A stretch of 61,890 bases of DNA, filler included. It is 6 parts of 6 records of this genome, joined end to end, with 100 filler letters (N's around TTAATTAATTAA, not from the genome) between each part and the next. Parts side by side here need not be neighbours in the genome. Positions count along the whole stretch, not along the records: positions 55,078 to 61,890 come from SRR16203515_14852; 5 more parts are not named here. One strand, written 5' to 3'. The translations under genes were made by a program, and so were the position numbers. The notes under the pieces are model-generated. The model did no database searches, was not told the origin of the DNA, and was given only the letters and a program-made list of their open reading frames with translations. Positions 35,259 through 61,890 of this stretch are shown here, piece by piece (position 1 is the stretch's first letter; every line of letters starts with the position of its first letter).

Positions 35259-35486
35259 AAAAAACGTGCTGAACTAGGTGCGGTACAAAACCGGTTCCAG
35301 TCAACTATTCGTAACCAATCGAATATTTCTGAAAACTTGAGTGCTGCAAAATCACGTATTAAAGATACTGACTTTGCTCAAGAAACGGCTAACTTAACTA
35401 AGATGCAGATATTACAACAGGCAAGCCAAACAATCCTTAGTCAAGCTAATCAACGTCCGCAGGCTGCATTAAGTCTTTTAGGTTAA
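35259..35486 (+). CDS. fliC: Flagellin, C-terminal fragment (copy 1)
   Basis: Not in ORF track; [75 protein letters not shown]. Confidence 0.95.
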
Positions 35487-35630
35487 TAGTTGGGGAGAGT
35501 CAATTAATTGACTAGGAATGTAGCGCCTTTGTCTAATGGGGTATTAACAAAGGCGCTGAAACGGATTGATAAAGCAGAGGCGCTTAAAAATCCTTGAGTG
35601 TTCTAACATTTGTAAGAACATAATTTACAA

Positions 35631-35647
35631 AGCACAAACTATGCCAA
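35631..35647 (-). promoter_or_regulatory. Leftward sigma54 (-24/-12)-like motif
   Basis: Reverse complement TTGGCATAGTTTGTGCT, GG-N10-GC spacing; no protein gene downstream on that strand. Confidence 0.45.
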
Positions 35648-35685
35648 TGTTTTTGCTTTTAACCCACTCTCAAACTTATCTTTAT

Positions 35686-35711
35686 AAGGGTCTTTTAAAG
35701 GCCCTTTTTTT
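35686..35711 (+). terminator. Intrinsic terminator downstream of flagellin copy 1
   Basis: AAGGGTCTTTTAAAGGCCCTTTTTTT. Confidence 0.7.
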
Positions 35712-35735
35712 ATGGGGTCAAAAAAAATCATAAAG

Positions 35736-35751
35736 TTGGCCTAAAGATTGC
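35736..35751 (+). promoter_or_regulatory. Sigma54 promoter motif for flagellin copy 2
   Basis: TTGGCCTAAAGATTGC, GG-N10-GC. Confidence 0.65.
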
Positions 35752-35899
35752 TCAATACTTATTAAGTTTTTAATTTAACCTGCAAAGTGGCAGTTTATTG
35801 CCTAGGGCCAATATATCTTGGTTGCTGTAGCTAGTCACTTTGTCAAAGCTCCACTCATTTCGAGTGGCTTAAATTTGACAGATAATAAGAGAGTTTATT

Positions 35900-36868
35900 A
35901 TGGCTTTATTTGTAAACACGAATGTTAGTGCGTTAAATGCACAAAGACAGCTAGAAAGAACTGGAAACGACTTAGATACCTCATTTAAACGCCTATCGTC
36001 AGGTTTGCGTATCAATAGCGCTGCCGATGATGCCGCAGGTTTACAAATTTCGGATCGTTTACAATCACAAATCCTAGGCTTAAACCAAGGCAATCGAAAT
36101 GCAAATGATGGTATCTCTTTAGCACAAACAGCTGAAGGTGCACTTGATGAAATTACCTCAACATTTCAACGAATTCGAACACTTGCCCAGCAATCTGCTA
36201 ATGGTTCTAATACTGACGAAGACAGGTTAGCCATTCAAGAAGAAATTAGACAGCTGTCTGATGAAGTGAATAGAATTGCTGCCGATACTACTTTTGGTGG
36301 TCAAAACTTATTAGACGGCTCTTACTCTGCAAGCTTCCAGGTTGGAGCCGATGCAGTGCAAACCATTGGCTTTAGCATGCAATCAGTGGGTAGTACGGCA
36401 AACTCATTGGCAGCTAATGGTGGCTTTACAATTTCAGGTGTTGCGGGTGTGGCATCTGCAGTAGGTGGAAAGTCGCTTTCAACACTTGCAGCAAACGTCA
36501 GTACTATTGATGGTGCAACAGCGGCGTCAACGTTAGATTTCTCAACAGTATTTACAGCTGAAGGGATCAGCGTATCTTCGCAAGTAAACGCACAAGCTGT
36601 GTTTGCTGGAATGGATTCGTTAATTGCTGTTGTTGATAAAAAGCGCGCCGAGCTTGGTGCTGTACAGAATCGTTTTCAGTCGACAATTCGAAATCAGGCA
36701 AATATTTCTGAAAACTTAGCTTCAGCAAAGTCGCGAATTAAAGATGCTGATTTTGCAGCTGAGACAGCAAATTTGACTAAAAACCAAATATTACAACAAG
36801 CAAGCCAAACTATTTTAGGTCAAGCAAATCAACGACCTCAGGCCGCATTAAGCTTGTTGCAGGGTTAA
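35900..36868 (+). CDS. fliC: Flagellin (copy 2)
   Basis: [17 protein letters not shown] and conserved C-terminal domain. Confidence 0.97.
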
Positions 36869-36904
36869 AATAGAGTAAATTTGTTAAAAGATTATAAATA
36901 AAGC

Positions 36905-36931
36905 TAAAGTTTCCGTTTTATCTGACGATAA
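36905..36931 (+). promoter_or_regulatory. Sigma28 (FliA) promoter motif for flagellin copy 3
   Basis: TAAA-N15-GACGATAA versus consensus TAAA-N15-GCCGATAA. Confidence 0.8.
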
Positions 36932-37033
36932 CAGACTTAGAGAACTAAAAATCTAGGACTCTCAGTCTGGAATAATAGCAGGGTAGGGGTATCCCGTTAT
37001 TATTCTATCTAAAATGATAAAGCGGAGGCTATT

Positions 37034-37996
37034 ATGGCTTTATATGTAAATACTAATGTGAGTTCATTGAACGCACAACGTCAGTTAATGAAATCTGGCA
37101 ACCAACTTGATACATCCTTTCAACGTCTATCATCAGGTTTTCGTATTAACAGTGCGAAAGATGATGCTGCTGGTATGCAAATATCTAACCGTTTGACTAG
37201 CCAAATAAGCGGCTTAGATCAAGGTAACCGTAATGCAAATGATGGTATTTCACTAGCACAAACTGCTGAGGGTGCGCTTGATGAAACAACATCTATGTTT
37301 CAACGTATGCGTACTTTGGCACAGCAAGCATCAAATGGTTCTAATACTGATGAAGATCGCTTAGCTATTCAAGAAGAAATTCGTTCACTATCGTCAGAAG
37401 TAAACCGTGTTGCTGCCGATACTACGTTTGGTGGTCAAAACTTATTAGATGGATCATTCTCTGCAAACTTTCAAGTAGGTGCGGATGCTGTTCAGAATAT
37501 TAGCTTTAGTATGAAAGATGTTGGCGGTACAGCTAACTCAATTGCAGCTGATGGCGGCTTTACTATGTCAGGTATTGCAAGTGTTGCGAGTGCTGTTACG
37601 GGCGCAAGCTTAAGTGCAACAGCTGGTACTATTAGTACGCAAGTAGGTGCTTCAGCAGATGAAACTGCTTTTTCATCAGTGTTTTCGTCAACAGGAATTA
37701 GTGTATCTTCGCAGGCAAATGCGCAAGCAGTTATGGCAGGTATGGATGCGATGATTGCTGTGGTTGACAAAAAGCGAGCAGAGTTAGGTGCGGTTCAAAA
37801 CCGGTTCCAATCAACAATTCGAAATCAATCAAATATCTCTGAGAACTTAAGTGCTGCAAAATCACGTATTAAAGATACAGATTTCGCAGCTGAAACAGCT
37901 AACCTCACAAAATCGCAAATACTTCAACAGGCAAGTCAATCGATTTTGAGTCAAGCAAATCAGCGTCCACAAGTAGCACTTTCGCTACTAGGCTAA
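37034..37996 (+). CDS. fliC: Flagellin (copy 3)
   Basis: RLSSGFRINSAKDDAAG and conserved C-terminal domain. Confidence 0.97.
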   Translation: MALYVNTNVSSLNAQRQLMKSGNQLDTSFQRLSSGFRINSAKDDAAGMQISNRLTSQISGLDQGNRNANDGISLAQTAEGALDETTSMFQRMRTLAQQASNGSNTDEDRLAIQEEIRSLSSEVNRVAADTTFGGQNLLDGSFSANFQVGADAVQNISFSMKDVGGTANSIAADGGFTMSGIASVASAVTGASLSATAGTISTQVGASADETAFSSVFSSTGISVSSQANAQAVMAGMDAMIAVVDKKRAELGAVQNRFQSTIRNQSNISENLSAAKSRIKDTDFAAETANLTKSQILQQASQSILSQANQRPQVALSLLG

Positions 37997-38071
37997 TGGG
38001 TTTCTAAGTCATTATTGAGCTTTTGCTTGATAATGGCTTATACTTTGAGTGTGTTTTGAAGGAGACCTACC

Positions 38072-38506
38072 ATGGCTGATTTAACTGCAATAATTAAATC
38101 AAACGAAAATTTGTCTGCTAATTCATCTTTTACGAATAAAAGTGAATTAAATGAAGCTACTAAAAAAGCAAATCTTGAACAAGATGGCGTGAAAATTGCT
38201 GGAAGAGAACCAAGCTTTGTTGAAGACGGCAAAGAACTAGATTCTGAAGGCGAAAGAAAAGCGCTCATAGAAGAAGTTAAAGAAAATTTAGAAAAGTTAA
38301 ACAAGTATATTCCCGTTACTTCAACTAATTTAGTATTTGAGTTTGATGAAGATGGCGATCCGCCGATTATCAAAGTATTTGATAAAAAAAGCGAAGAAGT
38401 GATCCGTGAAATTCCTACTAAAGAATTTAGAGAAGTAGCTAAAGCTTTAGATGAATTTGCCGATAAACTTACTAATAAAGGGTTGTTATTGAATCAAACA
38501 GCCTAA
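38072..38506 (+). CDS. flaG: Flagellar protein FlaG
   Basis: LVFEFDE...IKVFDKKSEEVIREIP; position between flagellin and fliD. Confidence 0.85.
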   Translation: MADLTAIIKSNENLSANSSFTNKSELNEATKKANLEQDGVKIAGREPSFVEDGKELDSEGERKALIEEVKENLEKLNKYIPVTSTNLVFEFDEDGDPPIIKVFDKKSEEVIREIPTKEFREVAKALDEFADKLTNKGLLLNQTA

Positions 38507-38536
38507 CACGTTTGCAACAGATAGTAGGAGAGAAAT

Positions 38537-39940
38537 ATGCCACTAATTACATCCGCAGGTATTGGCTCGGGGCTAGATCTCGAAAGTATCATTAGTGCAT
38601 CTGTTGCAGCAGAAAACACGCCTAAAATGAATGCATTTGCTTCGAAAGAAGAGTCTTTAAAAGTTGAACTATCATCATTAGGTGAAGTCAAGTCAGCGAT
38701 GTCTAAGCTGCAAGATACAATTGAAAAGCTAGCTGATCCAGATAACTTTGATAAGCGAATTGCTGACATCACTCAACCAAATAGCGAGGACGGAGATTTA
38801 ATATCTGTCACTCCAACCTCAGATATCACTCCCGGCAATTTCAATATAGAGGTTGTTGAGCTTGCACAGGGTAGCCGTGCGGTCTCCAATGACTCACTTT
38901 TTACTACGACAGATGATGTTGTCACAGCTTCAGGAGGAACGCTTTCTTTTGCCGCTGGTCCAGATAAAAGTTTTGATTTAACACTGGATGCAGGCGCTAC
39001 TTTAGCGGAATTACGTGATGCTATAAATGATTCAGATGATAACTTTGGTGTGACGGCTAATATAATAAACACGGGAACTGAAGCTAAGTTAGTTTTAACA
39101 TCGAATGTAACTGGTGATAGTAATGATCTTGTGATCACTAATGACAATGCTGAGCTGGATAATGTATCAACAGTAGCAAATGCTGGTGGTGCTGGTGGTA
39201 TAGGTATATCTGCTGAGAACCAAGCTAAAAGTGCAATAATTAAAGTCGATGGTATCGAAATAACAAACGATACAAATACGTTTAAAGATGCAGTGCAAGA
39301 TATGACAATTACTGCTAAGCGTCAAAGTGTTGACAATGAAACAGCAAAGCTTTCTGTTTCATACGATAAAAGCAGCGTTACTACACTCGTTGATGAGTTG
39401 GTTGCAAATTACAATAACCTAATAGGGCAAATTGGTTTGCAAACCCGTGTTGATAAACCTTTAAATGGTGACTCTACAATTAGATCATTTGACTCTCAGT
39501 TAGTTAATACTCTGTCTACAGAGCTATCTGATGGAGGGCCATTTTCTAGCATATTTGATATTGGTTTAGGTATTGATAAAGATGGGTATTTAGAAAAATC
39601 ATCTCTTGTTCGAAGTTTAAATGAGGCTATGGACGAAAACTTTGATGATATTGGTAAGGCATTTTCTGGAGAAAATGGCTTAGCAACTAAATTTGAGGCC
39701 CTTTTAAGTAATTACGTTGATTCAGATGGAATTATGAAACAACGTGAAGATAGCCTAAATTCTCAAATAGATGAATTAGAAGATGATGTTATTAACCATG
39801 AATACCGTATGGAGTCGTTAGAAGCAAGGTTACGAGAACAATATGCTGGACTAGATGTTTTATTAGCACAAATGCAGTCAACTCAAACGTATTTAAGTGC
39901 CCAGCTGTCAAGCTTACCGGGCTTTACTAAATCTAGTTAA
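38537..39940 (+). CDS. fliD: Flagellar filament cap protein
   Basis: AGIGSGLDLESII N-terminus; C-terminal QYAGLD...LSAQL. Confidence 0.95.
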   Translation: MPLITSAGIGSGLDLESIISASVAAENTPKMNAFASKEESLKVELSSLGEVKSAMSKLQDTIEKLADPDNFDKRIADITQPNSEDGDLISVTPTSDITPGNFNIEVVELAQGSRAVSNDSLFTTTDDVVTASGGTLSFAAGPDKSFDLTLDAGATLAELRDAINDSDDNFGVTANIINTGTEAKLVLTSNVTGDSNDLVITNDNAELDNVSTVANAGGAGGIGISAENQAKSAIIKVDGIEITNDTNTFKDAVQDMTITAKRQSVDNETAKLSVSYDKSSVTTLVDELVANYNNLIGQIGLQTRVDKPLNGDSTIRSFDSQLVNTLSTELSDGGPFSSIFDIGLGIDKDGYLEKSSLVRSLNEAMDENFDDIGKAFSGENGLATKFEALLSNYVDSDGIMKQREDSLNSQIDELEDDVINHEYRMESLEARLREQYAGLDVLLAQMQSTQTYLSAQLSSLPGFTKSS

Positions 39941-39980
39941 AGTATTTTTTAATTTATAGAATATTTACTATAGGTGATAT

Positions 39981-40409
39981 ATGTATAACGCTAAAGTCAA
40001 AAATTATCAAAAAGAAGCATTAAAAACACGAGTAGCTGGTGCTGATCGATATGAAATAATTCAAATGCTTATGGCTGGTGCGATTGAAAAAATGGTGATG
40101 TCAAAAGTAGCTATTGAAAAGAGGCATATGGAAGCAAAAGCCGAACACTTATCTAAGGCGACAGCAATTATTGAAGCGCTCAGAGGATGTTTAGACTTTG
40201 AAGTGGGTGGTGAAGTGACGGATAATTTATATGCACTTTATTCTTACATGATAGATCGCTTAGTCGATGCAACAATAAAAAATGACCCTGCGATAATTGA
40301 TGAAGTATCTAACCTTCTTAAAGAAATTAAGTCTGCGTGGGATGCAATACCTCATGACATTCGTGAAAAAACACTTAACGAAAATGGTATAGACGCAAAT
40401 GTCGGCTAA
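39981..40409 (+). CDS. fliS: Flagellin export chaperone
   Basis: LDFEVGGEVTDNLYALYSYM...IKSAW. Confidence 0.95.
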   Translation: MYNAKVKNYQKEALKTRVAGADRYEIIQMLMAGAIEKMVMSKVAIEKRHMEAKAEHLSKATAIIEALRGCLDFEVGGEVTDNLYALYSYMIDRLVDATIKNDPAIIDEVSNLLKEIKSAWDAIPHDIREKTLNENGIDANVG

Positions 40410-40698
40410 TTTGCGCTCTAAACTACTTCCTAGACTATCAATAATAAACCAACATATACAAGACGGTGATGCTGAATCAGCTCAAGTTGAATTAAACCAA
40501 CTTGATGATTTATTAAAATATCTATTTAAGTCTCCAGAAACACTTACAGAGGATGAAATTTTATTCTTATCTGACTTTTCCACGCAGTTAAATACGACAG
40601 TGCAGGATTTAAGTAAGAGAAAAGGCGTTTTAGCTCAAAAAATTGGTGTTCATATGAATACACAAAAAAAAATAAATGTTTATAAAAGTATTAAGTAG
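40399..40698 (+). CDS. Small helical protein in the FliT position
   Basis: 99 aa, overlaps fliS end, ends KINVYKSIK; call is positional only. Confidence 0.6.
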   Translation: MSANLRSKLLPRLSIINQHIQDGDAESAQVELNQLDDLLKYLFKSPETLTEDEILFLSDFSTQLNTTVQDLSKRKGVLAQKIGVHMNTQKKINVYKSIK

Positions 40699-40710
40699 GT
40701 AATAGGAATT

Positions 40711-41720
40711 ATGCAAAATAATGATTTTAACGAAGAGCTTAACCTATTATCAGCAAAATTAGAAAATACAGTCAAGCACCAAGAACGAGAAGCCATTTTT
40801 GCTAGAGAAGCAAATGAACGTTTTGAAAAGAATTGGGAGTGCTTGGCACAATATTACCCTGAAATTGTAAGTGCTTTATCTAAGTTCACATTACGGGATG
40901 ACTTCTGCATTCACGTCACGCTAAGTGGTCATGGCAACATAATACCTAAGAATGCTCCAGCCCCTATTTATTCACAAAATCCGCTTAAACAGAGTCAAGA
41001 GCAGGTTAAACGACAGATCACTCACCCAGTTTTTAGTTTAACTGACTATACAGGGTATCCCGAAAGCACTTCAGATGAACGCTTACACACTGAGTATATG
41101 GTTAAGCTTGGCCAGTTTATGCGTAAGTTGAGAGAGTTTGAAGAAAAAAAAATAGAGCAGTTACCTAGTAATTTCCCATCAGGTATCATCTTTGGCGTAG
41201 GGCTGGGCTATCATATACCAGAATTGCTAAATCATACATCGTTTGATTATTTATTTATCATTGAGCCAGATATAGAACAGTTTTATGCAAGTTTATTTTG
41301 TATTGACTGGTGTGATGTTATTAAAAAAATTGATGATCAGGGAAACTGTCTTTTCTTTAATCTGGGGGCAGATAAAAATACGTTTATACAAGATTTAGAA
41401 AATGTAGTTGAAGATATTGGCGCGTTTTCAGCTGTCAGAAGCTTTTGCTACCAACATACACCAGGGCGTGAAATCAATGATTTGATAGCTAATTGGGCGG
41501 CGGATTACTTCCGTTTTCAAATGGGACATGGATTTTTTAATGATGCAATAACTGGGTTTGCTCACTCAATTTCCCACCTTGAAAATAACCAGACTTTTCT
41601 TACAAACAAAGATAGATTACCGACTTCGTTATTAGATACTCCAGTGTTTTTAGTTGGTAATGGCCCATCGTTAGATGAGGCTATTGAATATTTAAAAAAT
41701 AATCAAAATAAAGGGATTGT
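40711..41720 (+). CDS. Motility-associated factor (Maf/DUF115-type flagellin glycosyltransferase-like), truncated by contig end
   Basis: FGVGLGYH, IIEPD and VFLVGNGPSLD motifs; follows fliS. Confidence 0.8.
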
Positions 41721-41821: not shown

Positions 41822-44698
41822 AAGGACGATGGAGAGTCTTCAACGGGTGGAGAGACAGCTTCAGACCATGCTTTTATCATTGATTTCGATAATCTATATA
41901 ACAACACCTTTTCAGTCGTCAATCAGTTTACGATTACAGGCACTAAACAGCCACGTCGGCCTGATGTTATTTGCTTTATTAATGGCTTACCGATTGCTGT
42001 ACTTGAGCTGAAAAGTCCAAGCGATGAGAACGCCGATATTTGGGATGCCTTTAATCAGCTGCAAACTTATAAAGATGAAGTTTCAGACCTTTTCATCTTT
42101 AATGAGGCGTTAGTCGTCAGTGATGGTTACACCGCTAGGGTAGGCTCGCTAACTGCTAACCAAGAGCGTTTTATGCCTTGGCGCACCATTAAAAATGAAG
42201 ATGACAAACCGCTACTGGAGTGGCAGCTAGAAACCATGGTTCGCGGTTTCTTTGACCGTGAGTTGCTTCTGGATTACATACGATTTTTTGTGTTGTTTGA
42301 AACCGATGGTGAGGCGATTATTAAAAAAATCGCGGGCTATCATCAATTTCATGCTGTGCGAGAAGCAGTAAAAGCAACCGTGGTTGCGGCACAGAATATC
42401 GGCGGCATCAGCGAAAAACGCGCGACTTATGCCGATGAAGTGGTGCCCGGTAGCAAAAAAGCCGGTGTGGTGTGGCACACCCAGGGCAGTGGTAAAAGCA
42501 TTTCTATGTGTTGCTATGCGGGTAAATTGCTGCAAGAGCCTGCCATGAAAAACCCAACGCTTATAGTGGTGACTGATCGCAATGACCTAGACAGCCAATT
42601 GTTTGAAACCTTCAGCAATGCCGTTGAACTGCTGAAACAACCCCCAGTAAAAGCGGGCAACCGTGATGAGCTAAGGCAGTTACTGGCCGAGCGTGAATCG
42701 GGCGGTATTATTTTTACCACGGTGCAAAAGTTTGCGCTGCTAGACGATGAAAATCACCACCCCGTACTTAATGACCGACAGAATATTGTGGTGGTGTCAG
42801 ATGAGGCACACCGCAGCCAATACGGTCTAAAAGCCCAGCTAAACAAAGACACCGGCGAGTATAAATTTGGCTATGCCAAACACATGCGTGATGCCTTGCC
42901 CTTTGCCTCGTTTATTGGCTTTACTGGCACCCCCATATCGCAAGAAGATAAAGACACCCGCGCCGTGTTTGGTGGTTATGTGTCTATTTACGATATTCAA
43001 GATGCGGTGGACGATGGCGCGACGGTGCCTATTTATTACGAATCGCGCCTTGCCAAGCTGGATTTAAACCACGATGCAATTGCCGCTTTGTCTGACCAAG
43101 TGGATGAAGTCGTGGAAGATGAAGAAGACGTAAGCTCGCGCGAGAAAACCAAAGGCGAGTGGAGCCGCCTTGAAAAGCTGGTGGGCGCCACCCCGCGCTT
43201 ACAACAAATTGCCGCCGACATTGTTGGGCATTTTGAAATCCGCAATGCCAGCATGGATGGTAAAGCTATGATTGTGGGTATGAGCCGTGATATTTGCGCG
43301 CATTTATACAACGAGATTGTGGCCCTGCGCCCTTAATGGCATTCAGACGACCCGGAAAAAGGCGCCATCAAAATTGTGATGACAGGCAGCGCCTCTGACA
43401 AGCCGTTATTGCAGCCGCACATCTATAACAAAACAACCAAAAAACGCTTAGAGAAGCGTTTTAAAGACGCGAACGACCCGCTAAAGCTAGTGATTGTGCG
43501 CGATATGTGGCTTACCGGTTTTGATGCCCCTTGCTGCCACACCATGTATATCGACAAGCCCATGAAGGGCCATAACCTGATGCAAGCCATTGCCCGTGTT
43601 AACCGGGTGTTTAAAAACAAACCTGGCGGCTTGGTGGTGGATTACATCGGTATTGCCAATGAACTTAAACAGGCACTAAAAACCTATACCGACTCTAAAG
43701 GTAAAGGCGAACCTACCCTTAATGCTGAAGAAGCCTTCGCGATTTTGCTAGAAAAAATCGATGCTCTTCGCGGCCTTTTTGCAAAAACCCCTAAAGGTGC
43801 TGGTTTAGATATTTCTGGCTTTGAAACAGACGCGCATAAGCTGTTGGTGCCTGTTGCCAACTATGTGCTAGGTATAGAAGATGGCAAAAAACGCTTTCTT
43901 GATTTGGTGTTAGCCGCTAGCAAAGCCTACTCACTTTGTAGCACCTTGGATGAAGCGAAAGACCTGCGCAAAGAAATAGCTTTTTACTCGGCCATAAAAG
44001 CGGCCATTAGCAAGTTCACCAGTGTCGATAAAAAGCGCAGCATCGAGGAGAAAAACTCCGCCTTAAAACAAATTCTAGACAATGCCGTGATCGCAGAAGG
44101 AGTTGCTGACGTGTTCGCACTTTGTGGCTTAGACAAACCCAACATCGGCTTGCTATCGGATGAGTTTTTAGAAGACGTGAGACAGATGCCGGAGCGCAAC
44201 CTTGCCGTTGAGTTACTTGAAAAACTTCTCAAGGATGACATTAAAGCGAAAACTCGTAATAACGTCGTGCAAGAGAAGAAATACGCAGAACGCTTGCAAG
44301 AAACGCTTAGAAAGTACAACAACCGTGCTATTGAAACCGCACAGGTGATTGAAGAACTCATTGAAATGGCTAAAGCCTTTCAAGAAGAAATAGCCCGTGA
44401 AGCAGGCCTTGGGCTTACCCCTGATGAAATCGCCTTCTACGATGCACTTGCTGATAACGAAAGTGCCGTGAGAGAGTTAGGCAATGCAACCCTCAAAAAA
44501 ATTGCAGTTGAAATTACCGACAAACTTAGAAAGTCCACCACTGTAGACTGGCAAGTTCGAGACAGCGTGCGCGCGAAATTAAAAATATTGGTACGACGCA
44601 CTTTACAGCGTTATAAGTACCCGCCTGACAGGGCTATTGAAGCGGTAGAGTTAATACTTAAACAAGCTGAAACTTTGTCTAACTCATGGACGAAATAG
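41822..44698 (+). pseudogene. hsdR: Type I restriction enzyme R subunit, 5'-truncated by contig edge, with in-frame TAA at 43334-43336
   Basis: Frame is open from 41822 (RRPDVICFINGLPIAVLELK and QLQTY nuclease motifs); [30 protein letters not shown]; junction reads [21 protein letters not shown]. Confidence 0.92.
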
Positions 44699-55077: not shown

Positions 55078-55078
55078 A

Positions 55079-56623
55079 ATTTCTGCAGAAATTCTTAAAA
55101 AAATGAAAAAAACTGCCGAAGATTATCTTGGTGAAAAAGTAACAGGTGCAGTAATTACAGTTCCTGCTTATTTTAACGATGCTCAACGTCAAGCAACAAA
55201 AGATGCAGGTCGAATTGCAGGTCTTGATGTAAAACGTATTATCAATGAACCAACAGCAGCAGCATTGGCTTATGGTATGGATAAGCAAGAAGAAGAGCAA
55301 ACTGTTGTTGTTTATGACCTTGGTGGTGGTACATTTGATGTTTCTATCATTGAAATTAATAACTTTGAAGGTGAAAAATCTATTGAAGTTCTTTCAACAA
55401 ATGGTGATACACACCTTGGCGGTGAAGATTTTGATAGCTGCATCATTAACTACATTGTAGAAGAGTTTAAAAATGAACAAAACATCGATCTTAAACAAGA
55501 TCCTCTTGCAATGCAACGTGTAAAAGAAGCAGGTGAAAAAGCGAAAATTGAACTTTCTTCTGCGAAACAAACAGATGTAAGTCTTCCTTATGTTACAGCA
55601 GATGCTACTGGACCTAAGCACCTTAACGTAAAAATTACTCGTGCAAAACTTGAATCTCTTGTTGAAGAACTTGTTGATCGTAGCTTTATTGCAATGAAAA
55701 ATGCAATGGAAGATGCAAGTATCGGTATTGATGATATTACTGATGTAATTCTTGTTGGTGGTATGACTCGTATGCCATTGGTACAAGAAAAAGTAACAGC
55801 ATTCTTTGGCAAAGAAGCACGTAAAGATGTAAACCCTGATGAAGCAGTAGCACAAGGTGCAGCAATTCAAGGTGGTGTACTTTCTGGTGATGTTGATGAT
55901 GTTCTTCTTCTTGATGTAACGCCTCTATCCTTTGGTATTGAAGTTGCAGGTGGTGTAATGGCTAAACTAATTGAAAAGAACTCAACTATTCCAACAGAAG
56001 GTAATGAAGTGTTCTCAACAGCAGTTGATAATCAACAAGCAGTAACAATTCATGTTCTACAAGGTGATCGTGACCAAGCTAAGTTTAACAAATCTCTTGG
56101 TGAGTTTAATCTTGAAGGCATTCGTCCTGCACTTCGTGGTCAACCACAAATTGAAGTTAAATTTTCTCTTGATGCTGACGGTATCCTGACTGTATCAGCA
56201 GAAGATAAAGATACAGGTAAGAAGCAAGATATTACTATTCAAGCAAATGGTGGTATGTCAGAAGAAGAAATTGCAGAAGCAATCAAGGATGCAGAAGCAA
56301 ATGCTGAAACTGATAAGCTTTTTGCTCAAAAAGTTGAAATGAGCAATCGTTCAGAAGTTCTAATTAATTCTGTTCGTAAAGAAATGGGTGAAGCAAAAGA
56401 TGATGCTGTTGAAGCTAAAATTGTTGAACTTCAAGAAGCTATGAAAGCAGAAGATACATCAATGATGGAACAAGTTCAAAAAGACCTTACTGGTACGTTC
56501 CAAACTTGGTTGCAAGCAAATCAACAAGCTGAAAATCAATCAGAACAAGCTCAACCAGAGTCAGCAGAGCCAGAAGCGTCAAAAGATGATATTGTAGATG
56601 CTGATTTTGAAGAAGTAAAATAA
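55079..56623 (+). CDS. dnaK: Hsp70 chaperone DnaK, 5'-truncated by contig edge
   Basis: [42 protein letters not shown] linker, ends DADFEEVK. Confidence 0.97.
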
Positions 56624-56641
56624 GAATCAACTAAAATAACG

Positions 56642-56676
56642 AAAATAAAGCCTCTTTTGAGGCTTTATTTTTTTTT
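56642..56676 (+). terminator. Intrinsic terminator after dnaK
   Basis: AAAATAAAGCCTC-TTTT-GAGGCTTTATTTT plus T-run. Confidence 0.88.
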
Positions 56677-56829
56677 GTAAATAATGTATAATAATAAAAA
56701 AAAGAGGCAAATCTTGCCTCTATCAAAAACGAAAAAATAAAAACTTATCATCCTTAATGAGTGTGTATAATTAAGAGGTGAAAAATCAGAAAAAAGTTTC
56801 AAAATTAAACAAAAAATATAGGAATTTTT

Positions 56830-57423
56830 ATGAGAAATAAATTTGCAATATTATTATCTATAATAACATTATCAGGTTGTTCAACAATAAAAGATGTACA
56901 GTATTCAATGTTAGAGGATAAAACAGAATATAAAGAATCTAAATTAGATTCAAATTTAACAGGTAATATGACAAGTTATTCTTATCTTGAATATTTAAGT
57001 TCTGATGATGGTCATTTTATAACTCATGAATATGGCTGTATAGTATATGAAGATAAACATCGGGTTTCTACATTTTCTTATTACATGGGATTAGCAAAAG
57101 ATTTCGAAGATATTTATTTTAATTCGACTCCTGTATATATAAAAAGTTCAGATTTTTTAGAAATGAAAATTGAAGGAATTAAATTTATAAATATTTTGTC
57201 AGGACTTGATATTTCATCTACGAAAAAAACGTTGAAAAATCTTGAAAAACTATCATTATCAGAAAAATATATAATATCTATTCCAGAATTAAATAAAACA
57301 TTTAAAAGTAAAGAAAGAAATGTAGAAAAAGCTTTGAAAGTAACAAATAAATGTTTCAAAAATTATTATATAGAAATGGAAAAGTCTAAATTAAAAGAAA
57401 AAAATAAAATGCAATTAATTTAA
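56830..57423 (+). CDS. Hypothetical lipoprotein
   Basis: MRNKFAILLSIITLSGC lipobox. Confidence 0.75.
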   Translation: MRNKFAILLSIITLSGCSTIKDVQYSMLEDKTEYKESKLDSNLTGNMTSYSYLEYLSSDDGHFITHEYGCIVYEDKHRVSTFSYYMGLAKDFEDIYFNSTPVYIKSSDFLEMKIEGIKFINILSGLDISSTKKTLKNLEKLSLSEKYIISIPELNKTFKSKERNVEKALKVTNKCFKNYYIEMEKSKLKEKNKMQLI

Positions 57424-57440
57424 AATAAAAAGGTATTAAA

Positions 57441-58430
57441 ATGAAAACAATTTTAGTAACAGGTGCGGCAGGTTTTATTGGAAGTCATGTAGTAAAAGCT
57501 TTAACCGAAAAAAATAAAGTTGTCGGGATCGATAATTTAAATGATTACTATGATGTAAATTTAAAAAAAGATAGATTAAAAATGATCGAACATGAAAATT
57601 TTAAATTTATAAAGCTTGATATATCTGATCAATCTGGATTATCTGAATTATTTGAAAATGAGTTGTTTGATCAAGTTATTCATTTAGCTGCACAAGCAGG
57701 AGTTAGATATTCAATTGAAAATCCAATGGCTTATGTTCAATCAAATATAGTCGGTATGACAAATATATTAGAATGTTGTAGGATTAACAAGGTAGATCAT
57801 TTAGTTTATGCCTCATCAAGTTCAGTTTATGGATTGAATGAAGAAGTTCCATTTAAAGAAAATCAAAAAACCGATTCACCTGCATCTTTTTATGGCGCAA
57901 CAAAAAAATCCAACGAAAATATGGCTCATTCATATGCTCACCTTCATAAAATGAATATAACAGGATTAAGATTTTTTACAGTTTATGGTGAATGGGGTAG
58001 ACCAGATATGGCTCCGTTTTTATTTACCAAAGCAATAACAGAAAAAAAAGAAATTAAAGTATTTAATTATGGTGAAATGGAAAGAGATTTTACTTATGTT
58101 GGAGATATTGTTGAAGGTATATTAAAAATAAAAGAAGTATTGCCAGAATCAATAAATAATAATAAAAATAAAACAAAATATCATGAAGTTTATAATATAG
58201 GTAATAATAAACCAGAAAAACTTAATGATTTTATTAAATGTATTGAATTGAATTTAGAAGCAAATGCAATTAAAAAATTATTACCGATGCAAAAGGGAGA
58301 TGTTTTAAAAACTTATGCATCAATTGATAAGATTAATAAAGCTTGTGGGTATAAACCAAAAGTATCCATAGATGAAGGGATTAAAAAGTTTATATTTTGG
58401 TATAAGAATTATTATAAAATAAATATTTAA
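57441..58430 (+). CDS. NAD-dependent nucleotide-sugar epimerase (UDP-glucuronate 4-epimerase-like)
   Basis: TGAAGFIG, HLAAQAGVRYS, YASSSSVYG, YGATKK, LRFFTVYGEWGRPDMA. Confidence 0.92.
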   Translation: MKTILVTGAAGFIGSHVVKALTEKNKVVGIDNLNDYYDVNLKKDRLKMIEHENFKFIKLDISDQSGLSELFENELFDQVIHLAAQAGVRYSIENPMAYVQSNIVGMTNILECCRINKVDHLVYASSSSVYGLNEEVPFKENQKTDSPASFYGATKKSNENMAHSYAHLHKMNITGLRFFTVYGEWGRPDMAPFLFTKAITEKKEIKVFNYGEMERDFTYVGDIVEGILKIKEVLPESINNNKNKTKYHEVYNIGNNKPEKLNDFIKCIELNLEANAIKKLLPMQKGDVLKTYASIDKINKACGYKPKVSIDEGIKKFIFWYKNYYKINI

Positions 58431-58433
58431 AAT

Positions 58434-58463
58434 AAAAAGCCGTAGAAATGACTACGGCTTTTT
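58434..58463. terminator. Intrinsic terminator after epimerase
   Basis: AAAAAGCCGTAG-AAATGA-CTACGGCTTTTT. Confidence 0.85.
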
Positions 58464-58482
58464 TATTTAATTTATTGTAAAT

Positions 58483-58510
58483 AAAAAAGCTTCCAATAGG
58501 AAGCTTTTTT
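58483..58510. terminator. Intrinsic terminator after exonuclease
   Basis: AAAAAAGCTTCC-AATA-GGAAGCTTTTTT. Confidence 0.85.
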
Positions 58511-59067
58511 TAATTATTCAAAATAGGTTTGATTTTATCAATCATTTTTTTAAATATTTGAGTAGTATTAATAGCATCATCTAATCCAGTATGTGCTTTA
58601 CCTTCTGCTTCAACTTCATAAAAGTCCATAGCTTCTTGTAATGAATATTTTTTAGATGTTTGGTTTAACATGGAGTGCATCATACTTAAATCCATATATT
58701 GACCAGATAATGGAAAATCAATATTTTTCAATTCACATTCCATCTCAAATTGTTTCCAATCAGAACCCCAAGCAATAATTGTTTTATTTCGAGTTCCCAA
58801 ATTTTTTAAACGATTACAAGCTTGTTTGAATTTTATTCCATTAGTTTTTAAAAATGGGAAATCATAACCAGTAAGTTGAGTGCAATATTCAGAAATTTTG
58901 TTAATTTGAGGTTTAATAAAAATTTGCTCTTTATGAGTTACTTCACCCTTTGTATTAACTTTAACTAATCCAATTTCTATAATTTCAGGCTTATAACCTT
59001 TTTCTCTCTTCTCTTCACAAGTCATTTCTAAATCAATAATGAAGTATTCTTTATTATTTCGGCTCAT
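58510..59067 (-). CDS. DEDDh 3'-5' exonuclease (KapD/ERI-1-like)
   Basis: IIDLEMTC, EIIEIG, CTQLTG, AWGSD, AHTGLDDA; start placed at MSRNNK. Confidence 0.85.
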   Translation of the reverse strand: MSRNNKEYFIIDLEMTCEEKREKGYKPEIIEIGLVKVNTKGEVTHKEQIFIKPQINKISEYCTQLTGYDFPFLKTNGIKFKQACNRLKNLGTRNKTIIAWGSDWKQFEMECELKNIDFPLSGQYMDLSMMHSMLNQTSKKYSLQEAMDFYEVEAEGKAHTGLDDAINTTQIFKKMIDKIKPILNN

Positions 59068-59068
59068 A

Positions 59069-59641
59069 TTACCATCCACTTATAATCATTAAGTCTTTAT
59101 CCCAATCAAATGTATTGTAAATAAAAACTAAATTAAAGATTTGATATTCAATAGATTCATCAGTAGCAATTGCACCATCCATATCTTTATTCTTTTTAAT
59201 AATCTCATTGTCTAATCGATAAGGTCTAAATTTTCGACCTTGTATTTCAAGAGACCAACGTTCTTTTTTTTGTATTAAATTAAACAACTCAATTTGATGT
59301 TCACCTGATTCTAATAATTGAATTTTACGCTCAAACATTTCAATGATTTCATCGTTGTACTTTTCAATGATATCTAAAAGACCATTTTTATGTATGATAT
59401 AGAAATCATGTCCATTATCTTTTGGACTATATTTATTGAAAAAAGGTGTTGTAAAACTTTTGAAAAACTCTTTATCTATGCCAGTTTGAAGAATTAATAA
59501 ATCTCTCTGTTCTGGCAAAGATGTTATACTTTCATAATCATATTCTAATTGACAAAGTTTATGTAACTGTTTTCTATTTGCATTTTTATATTTATCAAAA
59601 GATTCTTTTGGAAATCTTGATAATCGAATTCTATAACCCAT
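59069..59641 (-). CDS. Hypothetical protein
   Basis: 190-aa ORF with AAGGTG RBS and its own promoter motif. Confidence 0.75.
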   Translation of the reverse strand: MGYRIRLSRFPKESFDKYKNANRKQLHKLCQLEYDYESITSLPEQRDLLILQTGIDKEFFKSFTTPFFNKYSPKDNGHDFYIIHKNGLLDIIEKYNDEIIEMFERKIQLLESGEHQIELFNLIQKKERWSLEIQGRKFRPYRLDNEIIKKNKDMDGAIATDESIEYQIFNLVFIYNTFDWDKDLMIISGW

Positions 59642-59663
59642 AATTTCACCTTTATTTTTAATT

Positions 59664-59692
59664 ATTATATCATAAAAATAAAATAAAATCGA
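59664..59692 (-). promoter_or_regulatory. Extended -10 sigma70 promoter
   Basis: TCGATT-17bp(ending TGA)-TATAAT. Confidence 0.65.
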
Positions 59693-59706
59693 TTAATATT
59701 TTTAAA

Positions 59707-60309
59707 TTAATAGACTAAAAATGGGAGAATTTGTTCATTATCTTTTTCAATTGAAAAAGATTCAATATTAGATTCAACTCTATGGTTGTTTTTACAAAAA
59801 AATTGTTGGATATTATAAAAATCTTCGGTTTCTTTGAAAAATATTAAAATTTGATTATTCAATGCTACATTACGACATTTTATATTTTCGCTTTTTATTT
59901 TCTCTTGAAATGCTTTAATAAATCCACTTTCTAATAATTCTTTTGAAGTTTCAGAATTTAATTTAAAGAATTTATCATAAAAATAATTTGGATTAGTTTT
60001 ATGTATTATTTTTAATTGTGAATTTTCACAACAAAATTTTAATTTTAAATCTCTAAGCTCTTTTGATTTATTGTAGAAAAAATCTTCCAACTCTTCAACA
60101 GTTTTATTTGCTTCATTAAAAATATCTATATTATAGCTTAAATCAATTTCTTTTAGCTGTTCTGTATCTACTTCAATACACTTTACATTATTCCCTAATG
60201 CTATTGCACCTAATAAAGTTTTACTAATTGCTTCTAACTGTAATTTAACATGTTCAATTTTGATTTGATAATCTACAGCTTTTTTTGCAACACTTTTATA
60301 ATTGTCCAT
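59707..60309 (-). CDS. Hypothetical protein
   Basis: 200-aa ORF with GGAG RBS in very AT-rich DNA. Confidence 0.7.
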   Translation of the reverse strand: MDNYKSVAKKAVDYQIKIEHVKLQLEAISKTLLGAIALGNNVKCIEVDTEQLKEIDLSYNIDIFNEANKTVEELEDFFYNKSKELRDLKLKFCCENSQLKIIHKTNPNYFYDKFFKLNSETSKELLESGFIKAFQEKIKSENIKCRNVALNNQILIFFKETEDFYNIQQFFCKNNHRVESNIESFSIEKDNEQILPFLVY

Positions 60310-60334
60310 AATAACTCCATCTATTTTTTAAAAG

Positions 60335-60362
60335 AGTATATCATCGAGATAATTAAAATCAA
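60335..60362 (-). promoter_or_regulatory. Extended -10 sigma70 promoter
   Basis: TTGATT-16bp(ending TGA)-TATACT. Confidence 0.6.
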
Positions 60363-60390
60363 TAATATATAAAAGAAAAAATATTCAATA

Positions 60391-60418
60391 TTGAATTACA
60401 AAATTTATATGATACGAT
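60391..60418 (+). promoter_or_regulatory. Extended -10 sigma70 promoter
   Basis: TTGAAT-16bp(ending TGA)-TACGAT. Confidence 0.5.
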
Positions 60419-60448
60419 AAAATCATCATAATTGAAAAGGATAAAAAA

Positions 60449-61195
60449 ATGAGTTTTAAAAGCACATTAAAAACAATAAAAGACAACAAGGGCTTTTTAA
60501 GTTTATTAGTAGGGATTATAGCAGTAAAATCGTCAATAATTGATTGGAATTATGTACCAACAGGTTCAATGAGACCTACTTTGGCTGATGGTGATCAAAT
60601 TATAATAAATAAACTTGCATATGACTTAACAATTCCATTAACCTATATTTCATTACATAAATTTGGAGATCCAGTTGTAGGAGATATTGTAGTATTTGAT
60701 ACAGCTAAACAAGATGTAAGAATGGTTAAGAGAGTTGTTGCAGTGCCAGGTGATAAAATTAAAATGAGAGCTAATAAAGTTTATATTAATGATGAAGTTG
60801 TCGGTTATAAAGATGAATATAATTCTGAATTCTTAGATTCTACATTTAAGGCTTTGGATGAAGAAGATAAAAAAGACTATAAAAAATCAGGTGAAGATTT
60901 AGAAGACTTTAAAGTTGAATATAAAACTGAAATCATCAATGGTATATCTCATGGTATCAGAATAGAAACAGGTAAGCATTTACAAATAGGAACTTTAAAT
61001 TTCCAAGAAAGAGTTTTGAAAGAAAATGAATACTTTATGGTTGGTGATAATAGAAATAACAGTTTTGATTCAAGGTTTTGGGGTTTTGTTGAAAGGGATG
61101 AAATTATTGGTAAAGTAAACCATGTTGTCTTTTCATTAGATCAAGACCATTGGTTAAAACCAAGAATAAATAGATTTTTTGCAGATGTAGAATAA
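60449..61195 (+). CDS. lepB: Signal peptidase I (S26)
   Basis: VPTGSMRPTL (catalytic Ser), MVKRVVAVPGD (catalytic Lys), GDNRNNSFDSRFWG. Confidence 0.92.
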   Translation: MSFKSTLKTIKDNKGFLSLLVGIIAVKSSIIDWNYVPTGSMRPTLADGDQIIINKLAYDLTIPLTYISLHKFGDPVVGDIVVFDTAKQDVRMVKRVVAVPGDKIKMRANKVYINDEVVGYKDEYNSEFLDSTFKALDEEDKKDYKKSGEDLEDFKVEYKTEIINGISHGIRIETGKHLQIGTLNFQERVLKENEYFMVGDNRNNSFDSRFWGFVERDEIIGKVNHVVFSLDQDHWLKPRINRFFADVE

Positions 61196-61212
61196 ATACC
61201 TTAAATTTATAT

Positions 61213-61240
61213 AAAGAGATTCCATCAGGAATCTCTTTTT
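61213..61240. terminator. Bidirectional terminator
   Basis: AAAGAGATTCC-ATCA-GGAATCTCTTTTT. Confidence 0.8.
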
Positions 61241-61653
61241 TAATAATCTTTATGTTCTTGTAAAGTCTCTTTATTAACCCACTCTTTAGCTTGCTCTATT
61301 TTATTAAAAGAAAATCTTTTAAACTTACAAAGCAAAGGAATTGCTAAAAAAAATCCAGTTATAGCGAAAAAAGAACCTAACAATCCTTGCCACCCATTTA
61401 ATAAATTATGAGTAATTAAACAACATTTATCAAACCTCTTTAAGTTTAATAAATAGAATTTTAATATTTTCAAAAAACCTTTGAAATCAATTCCTTCAAA
61501 ATTGTCTATAATCTTTACAATTTTTATAGTATCCCAATCATCTAATAAACGTTTAAGGTGCATTAAATAGAAATCAATATTTTCTTTTTCAATAAATCCT
61601 TCAACTGTTACAATTAATACTTTATTTTGACTATCTTCTTCAAATTTCAACAT
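61240..61653 (-). CDS. SpoIIAA-like (STAS/SEC14) protein
   Basis: VLIVTVEGFI...NFEGID...RFDKCCLI...IEQAKEWV pattern. Confidence 0.65.
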   Translation of the reverse strand: MLKFEEDSQNKVLIVTVEGFIEKENIDFYLMHLKRLLDDWDTIKIVKIIDNFEGIDFKGFLKILKFYLLNLKRFDKCCLITHNLLNGWQGLLGSFFAITGFFLAIPLLCKFKRFSFNKIEQAKEWVNKETLQEHKDY

Positions 61654-61740
61654 ATAACCTCTTTATAATAAATTTAAGATATTAAATAATTTAATGATTT
61701 TTTTTATTTTTTAAATTAATGTTATTATTATTATTTGTTC

Positions 61741-61769
61741 ATTATATCACCAATAAAAAAATAAATAAA
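61741..61769 (-). promoter_or_regulatory. Extended -10 sigma70 promoter
   Basis: TTTATT-17bp(ending TGA)-TATAAT. Confidence 0.5.
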
Positions 61770-61862
61770 GTTGTATATAAATTTTTTTAACAATACTTTA
61801 ATATAAGACCTTAAAAATAGAAAAAACTTTTATTTTTTTACATTGATTAAAAAAAGATTAAA

Positions 61863-61890
61863 AAAAAAGACTCAATAAAGAGTCTTTTTT
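61863..61890. terminator. Terminator hairpin at window end
   Basis: AAAAAAGACTC-AATAAA-GAGTCTTTTTT. Confidence 0.8.

Follow-up and report, generated by a model that had tools for sequence, protein, structure and literature searches.

An AT-rich contig beside an Alteromonas assembly as a probable fragment of a marine, pMEGA-like giant extrachromosomal element

From what kind of replicon does a short, very AT-rich piece of DNA come that carries chaperone and secretion genes of bacterial type and lies among the contigs of an Alteromonas assembly? This question is raised by the window analysed here, a stretch of 61,890 nt made up of six contigs joined by N spacers, and specifically by the last of them (55078-61890; 6,813 b), which is the contig under study. 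Its G+C content (GC) is 26.8%, as against 45.5, 46.9, 37.6, 42.2 and 36.7% in the other five, which bears out the remark in an earlier note on this DNA that its GC is far lower than that of the other contigs (36.7-46.9%). The large companion contigs harbour rho-rhlB-gppA, nhaA, purK, coaBC and ilvI, and their GppA shares 91% identity with the Alteromonas profundi protein and 72-84% with those of many other Alteromonas. The companions are an Alteromonas assembly, to the chromosome of which the AT-rich contig is foreign given the distance between its GC and that of the large Alteromonas contigs (45.5-46.9%). We consider it likely that this contig is a fragment of a marine giant extrachromosomal element, very AT-rich and probably megabase-scale, of a kind similar to the pMEGA megaplasmids of Enterobacteriaceae (Guitor et al., 2025; bioRxiv 10.1101/2025.09.30.679422 / PMC12633466). 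The support for this comes from relatives of the contig's genes and from one mixed bin in which such relatives are found, and not from the 6.8 kb itself.

Genes were called as open reading frames (ORFs) and families were assigned through Pfam, NCBIfam and PHROG scans of the window proteins. All eight genes named in the earlier note (dnaK, a lipoprotein gene, a sugar epimerase gene, an exonuclease gene, two orphans, a signal peptidase gene and a SpoIIAA-like gene) are present. The closest relatives of the DnaK are metagenome-only proteins at 88, 80, 79, 74 and 72% identity, some of them from contigs of 114-221 kb; the best organism-named match, from Vibrio or Photobacterium, is at 67-68%, and an Alteromonadaceae DnaK is at 65%. 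Locus scans based on DnaK returned cellular DnaKs only, at no more than 68% identity and with no neighbours in common. A quick maximum-likelihood search on 41 rows, with support given by the Shimodaira-Hasegawa-like approximate likelihood ratio test (SH-aLRT), gave a tree in which the window DnaK forms a clade with that of a long relative described below (G001:C2) and 15 metagenome proteins (100% support), and this clade is nested within another (99%) that takes in Psychromonas, Alteromonadaceae and Vibrio/Photobacterium. The tree suggests that the genes were taken long ago from Alteromonas- or Vibrio-like gammaproteobacteria and that their composition drifted afterwards.

LepB, the signal peptidase, is matched by 21 metagenome-only clusters at 46-81% identity, followed by a plateau of ordinary cellular LepB at 42% or less, and its best match among the 72,556 plasmid records of PLSDB is at 34%. 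The orphan orfA has ten related clusters among 5.8 billion, with an invariant C-terminal motif (YQIFN..F.NTFDW..GW), and orfB has 12 cluster representatives among 1.84 billion. As judged from these matches, DnaK, the signal peptidase, orfA and orfB belong to small metagenome-only families. The same values for the longest contig (21,517; 113,738; 220,900; 28,080 b) recur across families, which suggests that DnaK and LepB, or orfA and LepB, are co-located in four further relatives. A metagenome scan with orfA gave a 44% identical protein on a 53-kb contig of 24% GC, two near-identical copies of G001:C2 and a distant homolog on a contig of 43% GC; among the species genomes searched, orfA occurs at a single locus, on G001:C2. 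In complete genomes of E. coli, only the chromosomal epimerase gene and dnaK were matched, and nothing was found there for 58510-61890. Structure models of the orphans, although of good predicted confidence (predicted local distance difference test scores of 81.8 for orfA and 90.8 for orfB), gave no usable fold match: for orfA the best Foldseek E value was 0.68 and the best VIA Z score 5.8, over a helical hairpin only, and for orfB, modelled as a long helical hairpin with an alpha/beta domain, the best Foldseek E value was 0.059. IMG/VR held no relative of orfA, and a distant homolog (25% identity, E 1e-13) was found on plasmid p380 of Vibrio coralliilyticus RE98 (NZ_CP009619.1 77158-77664), where it sits among 27 mostly hypothetical genes near a sigma-70 family gene and directly downstream of a gene for a protein of ~315 aa, as is also the case on G001:C2. 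A search of sequencing runs returned small shares (0.07-0.12) in five runs and is not usable as evidence.

The one long relative that was read is contig C2 of the public metagenome-assembled genome (MAG) G001, a contig of 214,927 b at 26.6% GC. It carries homologs of DnaK (67% identity), orfA (37%), orfB (28%) and LepB (68%), and orfB is divergent to lepB both here and in the window; dnaK and lepB also lie outside their usual operons in both. The genes of C2 that could be annotated are isolated host-type genes. Those for translation and RNA encode a CCA enzyme, a class II aminoacyl-tRNA synthetase, RNase H1, an RNA ligase, Thg1, two PTH2 proteins, SmpB and a ribosome hibernation factor, and those for replication and DNA modification an NAD ligase and three DNA methylases. 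Proteostasis and stress are represented by IscU, DnaK, DnaJ and PspA; motility and signalling by flagellin, methyl-accepting chemotaxis proteins (MCPs), CheW, a hybrid kinase and a sigma factor of the extracytoplasmic function type; metabolism and the envelope by AsnB, GlmS, CcmE, OMPLA and AOX; and mobile genes by TnpB. A Pfam family was found for 62 of the 214 ORFs (E <= 1e-5) and a PHROG match of any sort for 10 of 150. DnaK, SmpB, LepB and a transfer-messenger RNA (tmRNA) all fall within 45 kb of C2, which also bears a block of five tRNA-Phe genes. The tmRNA is of the two-piece, permuted type (G001:C2 186615-186970; L102 6615-6970), scoring 102 bits with RF04321 and 90 bits with beta_tmRNA RF01850 (gathering score 84); ARAGORN gives its tag as ANDESYAMAA, and SmpB is encoded 8 kb away. 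Close to the end of C2 (L103 1082-11095) there are eight consecutive same-strand paralogs of 416-486 aa with no Pfam family.

Contig C2 is one of nine AT-rich contigs (C1, C2, C11, C12, C15, C19, C21, C22 and C25; 1,226,367 b, 26.4-31.5% GC) in G001, a bin of 30 contigs and ~2.5 Mb in which the remaining contigs have a GC of 32-38% over their first 5 kb. In its make-up, this AT-rich half of G001 appears non-cellular and is rich in tRNAs, which bears upon the strongest rival explanation, namely that the contig is a chromosome fragment of a very AT-rich cellular gammaproteobacterium (streamlined, symbiotic or of large genome and uncultured) that was mis-binned with Alteromonas. Co-binning with the ribosomal gene set of a low-GC bacterium, which the earlier note took as a sign of such an origin, was not what we found in the one relative bin examined. 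When G001 was searched for 16S rRNA, RpoB domain 6, GTP_EFTU and ribosomal proteins S2, L13, L20 and L19, none of the 15 matches fell on the nine AT-rich contigs and all 15 fell on contigs of 33-38% GC, with L19 giving no match anywhere in the bin. The AT-rich contigs encode the tmRNA and 99 tRNAs (92 unique sequences); the tRNA genes are grouped by anticodon into blocks whose members have strongly diverged bodies (median identities of 66% among 11 Glu(UUC), 58% among seven Asp(GUC) and 61% among five Phe). Pfam scans took in 785 of their 1,315 ORFs and assigned a family to 216, leaving ~72% (569 of 785) without one; on the eight contigs other than C2, a family was found for 100 of 271 ORFs of at least 300 aa and for 54 of the 300 scanned (of 314) at 200-299 aa. 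Among the families assigned to the scanned ORFs there was none of ribosomal, RNA polymerase, capsid, portal or terminase type.

The cellular explanation nonetheless has points in its favour. All five annotated window genes are ordinary bacterial genes and the DnaK nests within Gammaproteobacteria. The AT-rich contigs of G001 carry many genes of cell type, those for MutS, RNase R, TilS, PolA, Pol III alpha (fused to epsilon), FtsH, ClpB, OmpA, a porin and MCPs, as well as an arginine deiminase operon and a cluster of type II secretion system (T2SS)/type IV pilus genes. Given a genome of more than 5 Mb, it would not be very unlikely for 1.23 Mb to miss every core marker. Against this, the host-type genes stand alone and outside operons (CcmE, FliC, CheW, dnaK without dnaJ, lepB without lepA), a DnaK at 65-68% to any named gammaproteobacterium is unusually divergent, and the single orfA locus among species genomes is on the mis-binned C2. 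Taken together with the absence of markers, the unassigned ORFs and the tRNA blocks, these data lead us to regard a cellular origin as improbable.

A fragment of a huge phage (megaphage) with host-derived auxiliary genes is the next possibility to consider. Huge phages carry DnaK, tRNAs, tmRNA and aminoacyl-tRNA synthetases, and DnaK is seen in uncultured phage records of 480-735 kb. Contig C2 encodes a tail-collar fibre domain protein (phrog_523, 2.5e-51) and a protein matching a long-tail-fibre hinge connector, in addition to its RNA ligases, PBECR5, Thg1 and PTH2. Contigs C11 and C19 carry suppressor tRNAs with a CUA anticodon and have a lower coding density, and C22 encodes a homolog of Acb1, which counters the cyclic-oligonucleotide-based antiphage signalling system (CBASS). 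However, capsid, portal, terminase, sheath and baseplate families were not found among the Pfam-scanned ORFs (785 of 1,315) or among the 150 PHROG-scanned ORFs of C2, none of the eight window contig proteins had a virion PHROG match, and IMG/VR held no relative of LepB or orfA and no DnaK match above 60% identity. The AT-rich set, at 1.23 Mb, also exceeds the largest phage genome cited in the part of the literature used here (735 kb; PMC7162821), unless it represents several phages. A protein search of the phage collection with an MCP-like protein of C2 and the polymerase of C15 was uninformative. We judge a huge phage to be an unlikely source.

Some of these genes deserve description in their own right. 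The families assigned on the AT-rich contigs also include RNase II, SbcB, two more aminoacyl-tRNA synthetases and RNA ligases; ~7 MCPs, Rhs proteins and an L,D-transpeptidase; and, for NAD and nucleotide metabolism, NAD synthase, NrtR, Sir2 and guanylate, adenylate and thymidylate kinases. The Acb1 homolog of C22 (L197 15953-16600) matches PF23474 at 3e-17, and an AbiTii-domain protein is encoded at L201 13780-14529; further genes of defence and counter-defence on the AT-rich contigs encode a Upf1-like helicase, a Ser/Thr kinase, PP2C, an ADP-ribosylglycohydrolase, TelA and Dam methylases. The CUA-anticodon tRNAs, one each on C11 and C19 (L159-L162, L186-L191) and called 'Pyl' by ARAGORN, lie in similar Leu/Arg/Met blocks, and under genetic code 11 these two contigs have a coding density of 73-75%, as compared with 82-87%, and they are higher in GC (30-31.5%). 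These oddities may reflect read-through of TAG, or a second, related element. On C15 (L174 4821-9644) a protein of 1,607 aa combines an N-terminal RNase_T exonuclease with PHP and Pol III alpha domains, and a full PolA is encoded 1.2 kb away. A run of 11 ORFs on one strand, each of 202-260 aa and lacking a Pfam family, occupies L192 549-8698 on C22. Domains of animal type occur on C21 (L179 10834-11829), C15, C12, C22, C1 and C25, and include Fibrinogen_C (4e-61), a thrombospondin C-terminal domain, TSP1 repeats, PARP with WGR, RCC1 repeats, TROVE and trypsins.

A gammaproteobacterial chromid, or second chromosome, is a very improbable source of the contig. Pseudoalteromonas records of 680-919 kb in PLSDB do carry dnaK and gave the best plasmid DNA matches (73-74% over 1.2 kb), but in DNA searches of phage and plasmid collections dnaK was the only part of the contig that matched, amounting to 18% of the query, and chromids share the GC of the chromosome (introduction of 10.1101/2025.09.30.679422), from which the contig differs by ~19 points. 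Finally, a giant virus of eukaryotes, suggested by AOX, Thg1, PTH2, AsnB, GlmS and the NAD ligase, was rejected on the tmRNA with SmpB, the sigma-70 factor, the bacterial polymerases (PolA and Pol III alpha) and the intrinsic terminators. The tmRNA, SmpB and the sigma-70 factor indicate a bacterial host; the sole RpoB-type match in G001 is on a contig of 35% GC, and a Capsid_NCLDV search gave no match, although control genomes gave none either.

We therefore return to the giant extrachromosomal element as the likely source, and several points that weigh against it need careful consideration. The link to Alteromonas as host is one of co-assembly only, and the record of G001 is titled as a Chloroflexota MAG, that is, another phylum than Alteromonas. 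Of the eight genes on the contig, four are without a homolog on C2, and among the AT-rich contigs homologs of the window genes occur on C2 and, weakly, on C22 only, the latter being an exonuclease at 28% identity. The unity of the nine contigs is a matter of binning and shared oddities, and they may be more than one element. Some of them have cell-like content: an arginine deiminase operon, a secretin accompanied by the E and F proteins of a T2SS, and also MutS, RNase R and TilS. No Rep, ParA/B, relaxase or type IV secretion system (T4SS) family was found among the 785 of 1,315 ORFs scanned, and searches of G001 for TrwC and VirB4 gave no match. The likeness to pMEGA is one of families and anatomy. 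Mindful of these points, we infer that the nine contigs belong to a single element or to closely related ones, that the window contig would derive from an element matching it in size and kind, and that Alteromonas would be the host of the latter.

These findings refine the earlier proposal of a jumbo phage or giant extrachromosomal element. The second half of that proposal, and with it the idea of a large non-chromosomal replicon carrying host-like genes and linked to gammaproteobacteria, is favoured by the evidence from relatives; the jumbo phage is less so. The description of the replicon kind as uncharacterised no longer holds, in that the pMEGA megaplasmids were described in 2025 (10.1101/2025.09.30.679422).

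The layout of the contig itself is given in Table 1. A Pfam family is present in five of the eight genes and lacking in the lipoprotein, orfA and orfB genes, and the lipoprotein also has no NCBIfam or PHROG family and no homolog among the AT-rich contigs of G001. Read along the contig, the strands are + + + - - - + -, giving three switches. The earlier picture of one- or two-gene units with frequent strand switches holds for most of the contig, the qualification being that the exonuclease gene, orfA and orfB possibly form one three-gene unit. The unusual chromosomal context that had been noticed is also evident, in that dnaK is not trailed by dnaJ and the neighbours of lepB are the orphan orfB and the STAS gene rather than lepA or rnc. 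ORF and family scans of the 6.8 kb found no capsid, terminase or rep gene, as the earlier note had said. There is no tRNA on the contig, and an Rfam scan gave sub-threshold matches only, over the hairpins.

Table 1. Features of the AT-rich contig, in positions of the whole window
Feature	Position	Strand	Remarks
AT-rich contig, 26.8% GC	55078..61890		N spacer sets it off from the preceding contig
dnaK, 5'-truncated by contig end	55079..56623	+	HSP70 E 1e-186; NCBIfam DnaK equivalog 733 bits, cut-off 648
Hairpin after dnaK, two-way	56641..56672	.	14-pair stem, then T run
Second hairpin in dnaK-lipoprotein spacer	56703..56721	-	
Putative lipoprotein, 197 aa	56830..57423	+	Signal peptide and LSGC lipobox seen in translation
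NAD-dependent nucleotide-sugar epimerase/dehydratase	57441..58430	+	All NCBIfam equivalogs under cut-off
Two-way hairpin after epimerase gene	58434..58463	.	
Hairpin at 3' end of exonuclease gene region	58483..58510	+	
DEDDh 3'-5' exonuclease	58510..59079	-	RNase_T; KapD-like but below cut-off
orfA, 190 aa	59069..59641	-	No Pfam/NCBIfam/PHROG family
Weak hairpin inside orfA	59410-59427		Terminator-like scan
orfB, 200 aa	59707..60309	-	No Pfam/NCBIfam/PHROG family
lepB, signal peptidase I	60449..61195	+	TIGR02227 143 bits, cut-off 47
SpoIIAA-like (STAS-fold) protein, 137 aa	61240..61653	-	Matches PF11964; C-terminal stretch hydrophobic
Hairpin at contig end	61863..61890	-	

A scan for terminator-like structures found nine sites, counting both strands, at six places, compared with 1.4 +/- 1.3 in shuffles, in agreement with the six hairpins counted earlier; promoter-like sites were not enriched (52 compared with 45 +/- 6). 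Each gene or gene pair is closed by a G+C stem and a T run, and intrinsic terminators in these positions fit transcription by the RNA polymerase of a bacterial host. Elsewhere in the window, two adjacent same-strand ORFs of 387 and 440 aa (42173-44698) match the front (positions 196-542) and the end (570-673) of TIGR00348 (HsdR), so that this type I restriction hsdR looks split or frameshifted. The contig of 37.6% GC at 35259-41720 carries flagellin and FliD genes and is a low-GC flagellar region of the Alteromonas assembly, distinct from the contig of 26.8% GC.

If one considers how such an element might work, it would replicate autonomously beside the host chromosome and be transcribed by the host polymerase. 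Its housekeeping genes of host type would be diverged copies that reached it from gammaproteobacteria in the distant past, their composition having since moved to the low GC of the element. The piece in the window may supply an Hsp70 chaperone, a signal peptidase I, a STAS-fold protein, an exonuclease, a lipoprotein and a sugar epimerase, the last being a candidate envelope-modifying enzyme; other parts, as seen in the relatives, may supply ~100 divergent tRNAs, a tmRNA with SmpB, DnaJ, FtsH, ClpB and DNA polymerases. The duplicated chaperone and secretion genes could serve the element's own AT-rich and largely secreted or membrane proteome. An element provided for in this way might be less dependent on any single host and have a wider host range, as the pMEGA authors propose (10.1101/2025.09.30.679422). 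A bolder notion, possible but in our view doubtful, is that the ocean has its own clade of megabase-sized, tRNA-laden elements of ~26% GC that are related to the gut pMEGA, live in Alteromonas-like gammaproteobacteria and lie hidden in MAGs as marker-free 'contamination'. Such elements may be without the conjugation and Rep genes described for pMEGA and form a replicon class of their own between plasmid and virus; the traits listed for them are the two-piece tmRNA, the suppressor tRNAs, the anti-CBASS gene and the animal-type domains (fibrinogen, thrombospondin, PARP and RCC1).

Were the contig and its 215 kb relative confirmed to be of the pMEGA kind, giant plasmids would be older and more widespread than has been described, and the kind would extend from gut to marine bacteria and span the Enterobacterales of GTDB. 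In GTDB, this order takes in Alteromonadaceae and Vibrionaceae. Hundreds of kb of such DNA would have gone unnoticed in MAGs because it does not carry the single-copy markers through which contamination is recognised. About half of the public MAG G001 (1.23 of ~2.5 Mb) is AT-rich DNA free of the core markers tested, so marker-based contamination checks would not flag it. There is, then, a bearing upon both the quality control of MAGs and the maximum size of plasmids. The Enterobacteriaceae in which pMEGA were reported came from guts and other samples associated with hosts, and the word 'marine' is absent from the main text of the preprint (10.1101/2025.09.30.679422). Searches for counterparts in marine bacteria or Alteromonas led to the pMEGA preprint or to unrelated papers, and we found no paper on such elements from marine bacteria or Alteromonas in the literature searched, which did not take in the pMEGA sample-source tables (S5 and S7).

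How, then, does the element compare with known systems? The secondary chromosomes of Pseudoalteromonas, a marine gammaproteobacterium, are also large secondary replicons with a dnaK, and differ in that dnaK is the only similar gene. They are treated as chromids with their host's composition. Plasmid p380 of V. coralliilyticus shares a distant orfA homolog within a long run of hypothetical genes, but it is 381 kb in size and no further window gene was seen there. Huge phages, as portrayed in the part of PMC7162821 used here, are likewise large and AT-rich, with many tRNAs, tmRNA, chaperones and mostly novel genes; the differences lie in the virion genes, the viral relatives and the size discussed above.

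The closest likeness is to pMEGA. According to the main text and the tables named here (10.1101/2025.09.30.679422), these are circular, 1.33-1.58 Mb in size and of ~26% GC as against 51% in the E. coli host, a gap that recalls the one between the window contig and the Alteromonas contigs if Alteromonas is assumed as host. They are termed plasmids on account of a T4SS, MOBF relaxases, RepC/TrfA-like Rep proteins and ParA-type partition (ParF), the Rep proteins being less than 31% identical to known ones and recognised through structure prediction; T4SS, relaxase, Rep and CRISPR-Cas were not found in the incomplete relative G001. A second difference is that the relative has a two-piece tmRNA, whereas the term 'tmRNA' is absent from the pMEGA main text, and a third that the window is marine, through co-assembly with Alteromonas, whereas pMEGA are from gut Enterobacteriaceae. 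The single-copy core genes of pMEGA include those for DnaK, signal peptidase I and a STAS protein (Tables S8 and S9), numbered 1203, 1246 and 1269 in pMEGA4, where SmpB is gene 1250, and all three families occur within the 6.8 kb of the window contig. This match is at the family level only, the STAS protein of the window belonging to PF11964 and that of pMEGA to PF13466. The pMEGA4 DnaK has an identity of 0.661 to the host DnaK (Table S16). Members of the window DnaK clade are 63.4-70.9% identical to E. coli DnaK, and one of them, P0009 (72% identical to the window DnaK), is at 66.14%; such values would suit P0008 and P0009 as DnaKs of pMEGA, although they are no proof. The authors also argue, in their Discussion, for such a history of pMEGA genes, with uptake long ago and later drift to the composition of the element.

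In anatomy, too, the AT-rich half of G001 resembles pMEGA as set out in the same parts of the preprint (10.1101/2025.09.30.679422). The pMEGA are without rRNA, ribosomal proteins and core metabolism, and ~80% of their genes are hypothetical; the relative, in an incomplete bin, has no core marker matches on its AT-rich contigs, which do bear the arginine deiminase operon, and 72% of its 785 scanned ORFs are without Pfam, the two measures being different ones. The 105-208 tRNAs of pMEGA lie mostly in blocks of the same codon with divergent sequences, 91 of 105 being unique in pMEGA4, to be set beside 92 of 99, also in blocks, in the relative. Isolated fliC, chemotaxis, pilus and secretion genes, several FtsH, RNase H1 families, TnpB and many methyltransferases are described for pMEGA, together with NAD-metabolism genes, deacetylases, phosphatases, tandem paralog runs, a ribosome hibernation factor, an L,D-transpeptidase, tellurium resistance, Upf1-like helicases and a Ser/Thr kinase. 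The relative matches this list in fliC, MCPs, the pilus/secretion cluster, FtsH, RNase H1, TnpB, the ribosome hibernation factor, NAD-metabolism genes, many methyltransferases and tandem paralog runs, and the runs of same-size ORFs on C2 and C22 recall the tandem multicopy subfamilies of pMEGA2 and pMEGA3.

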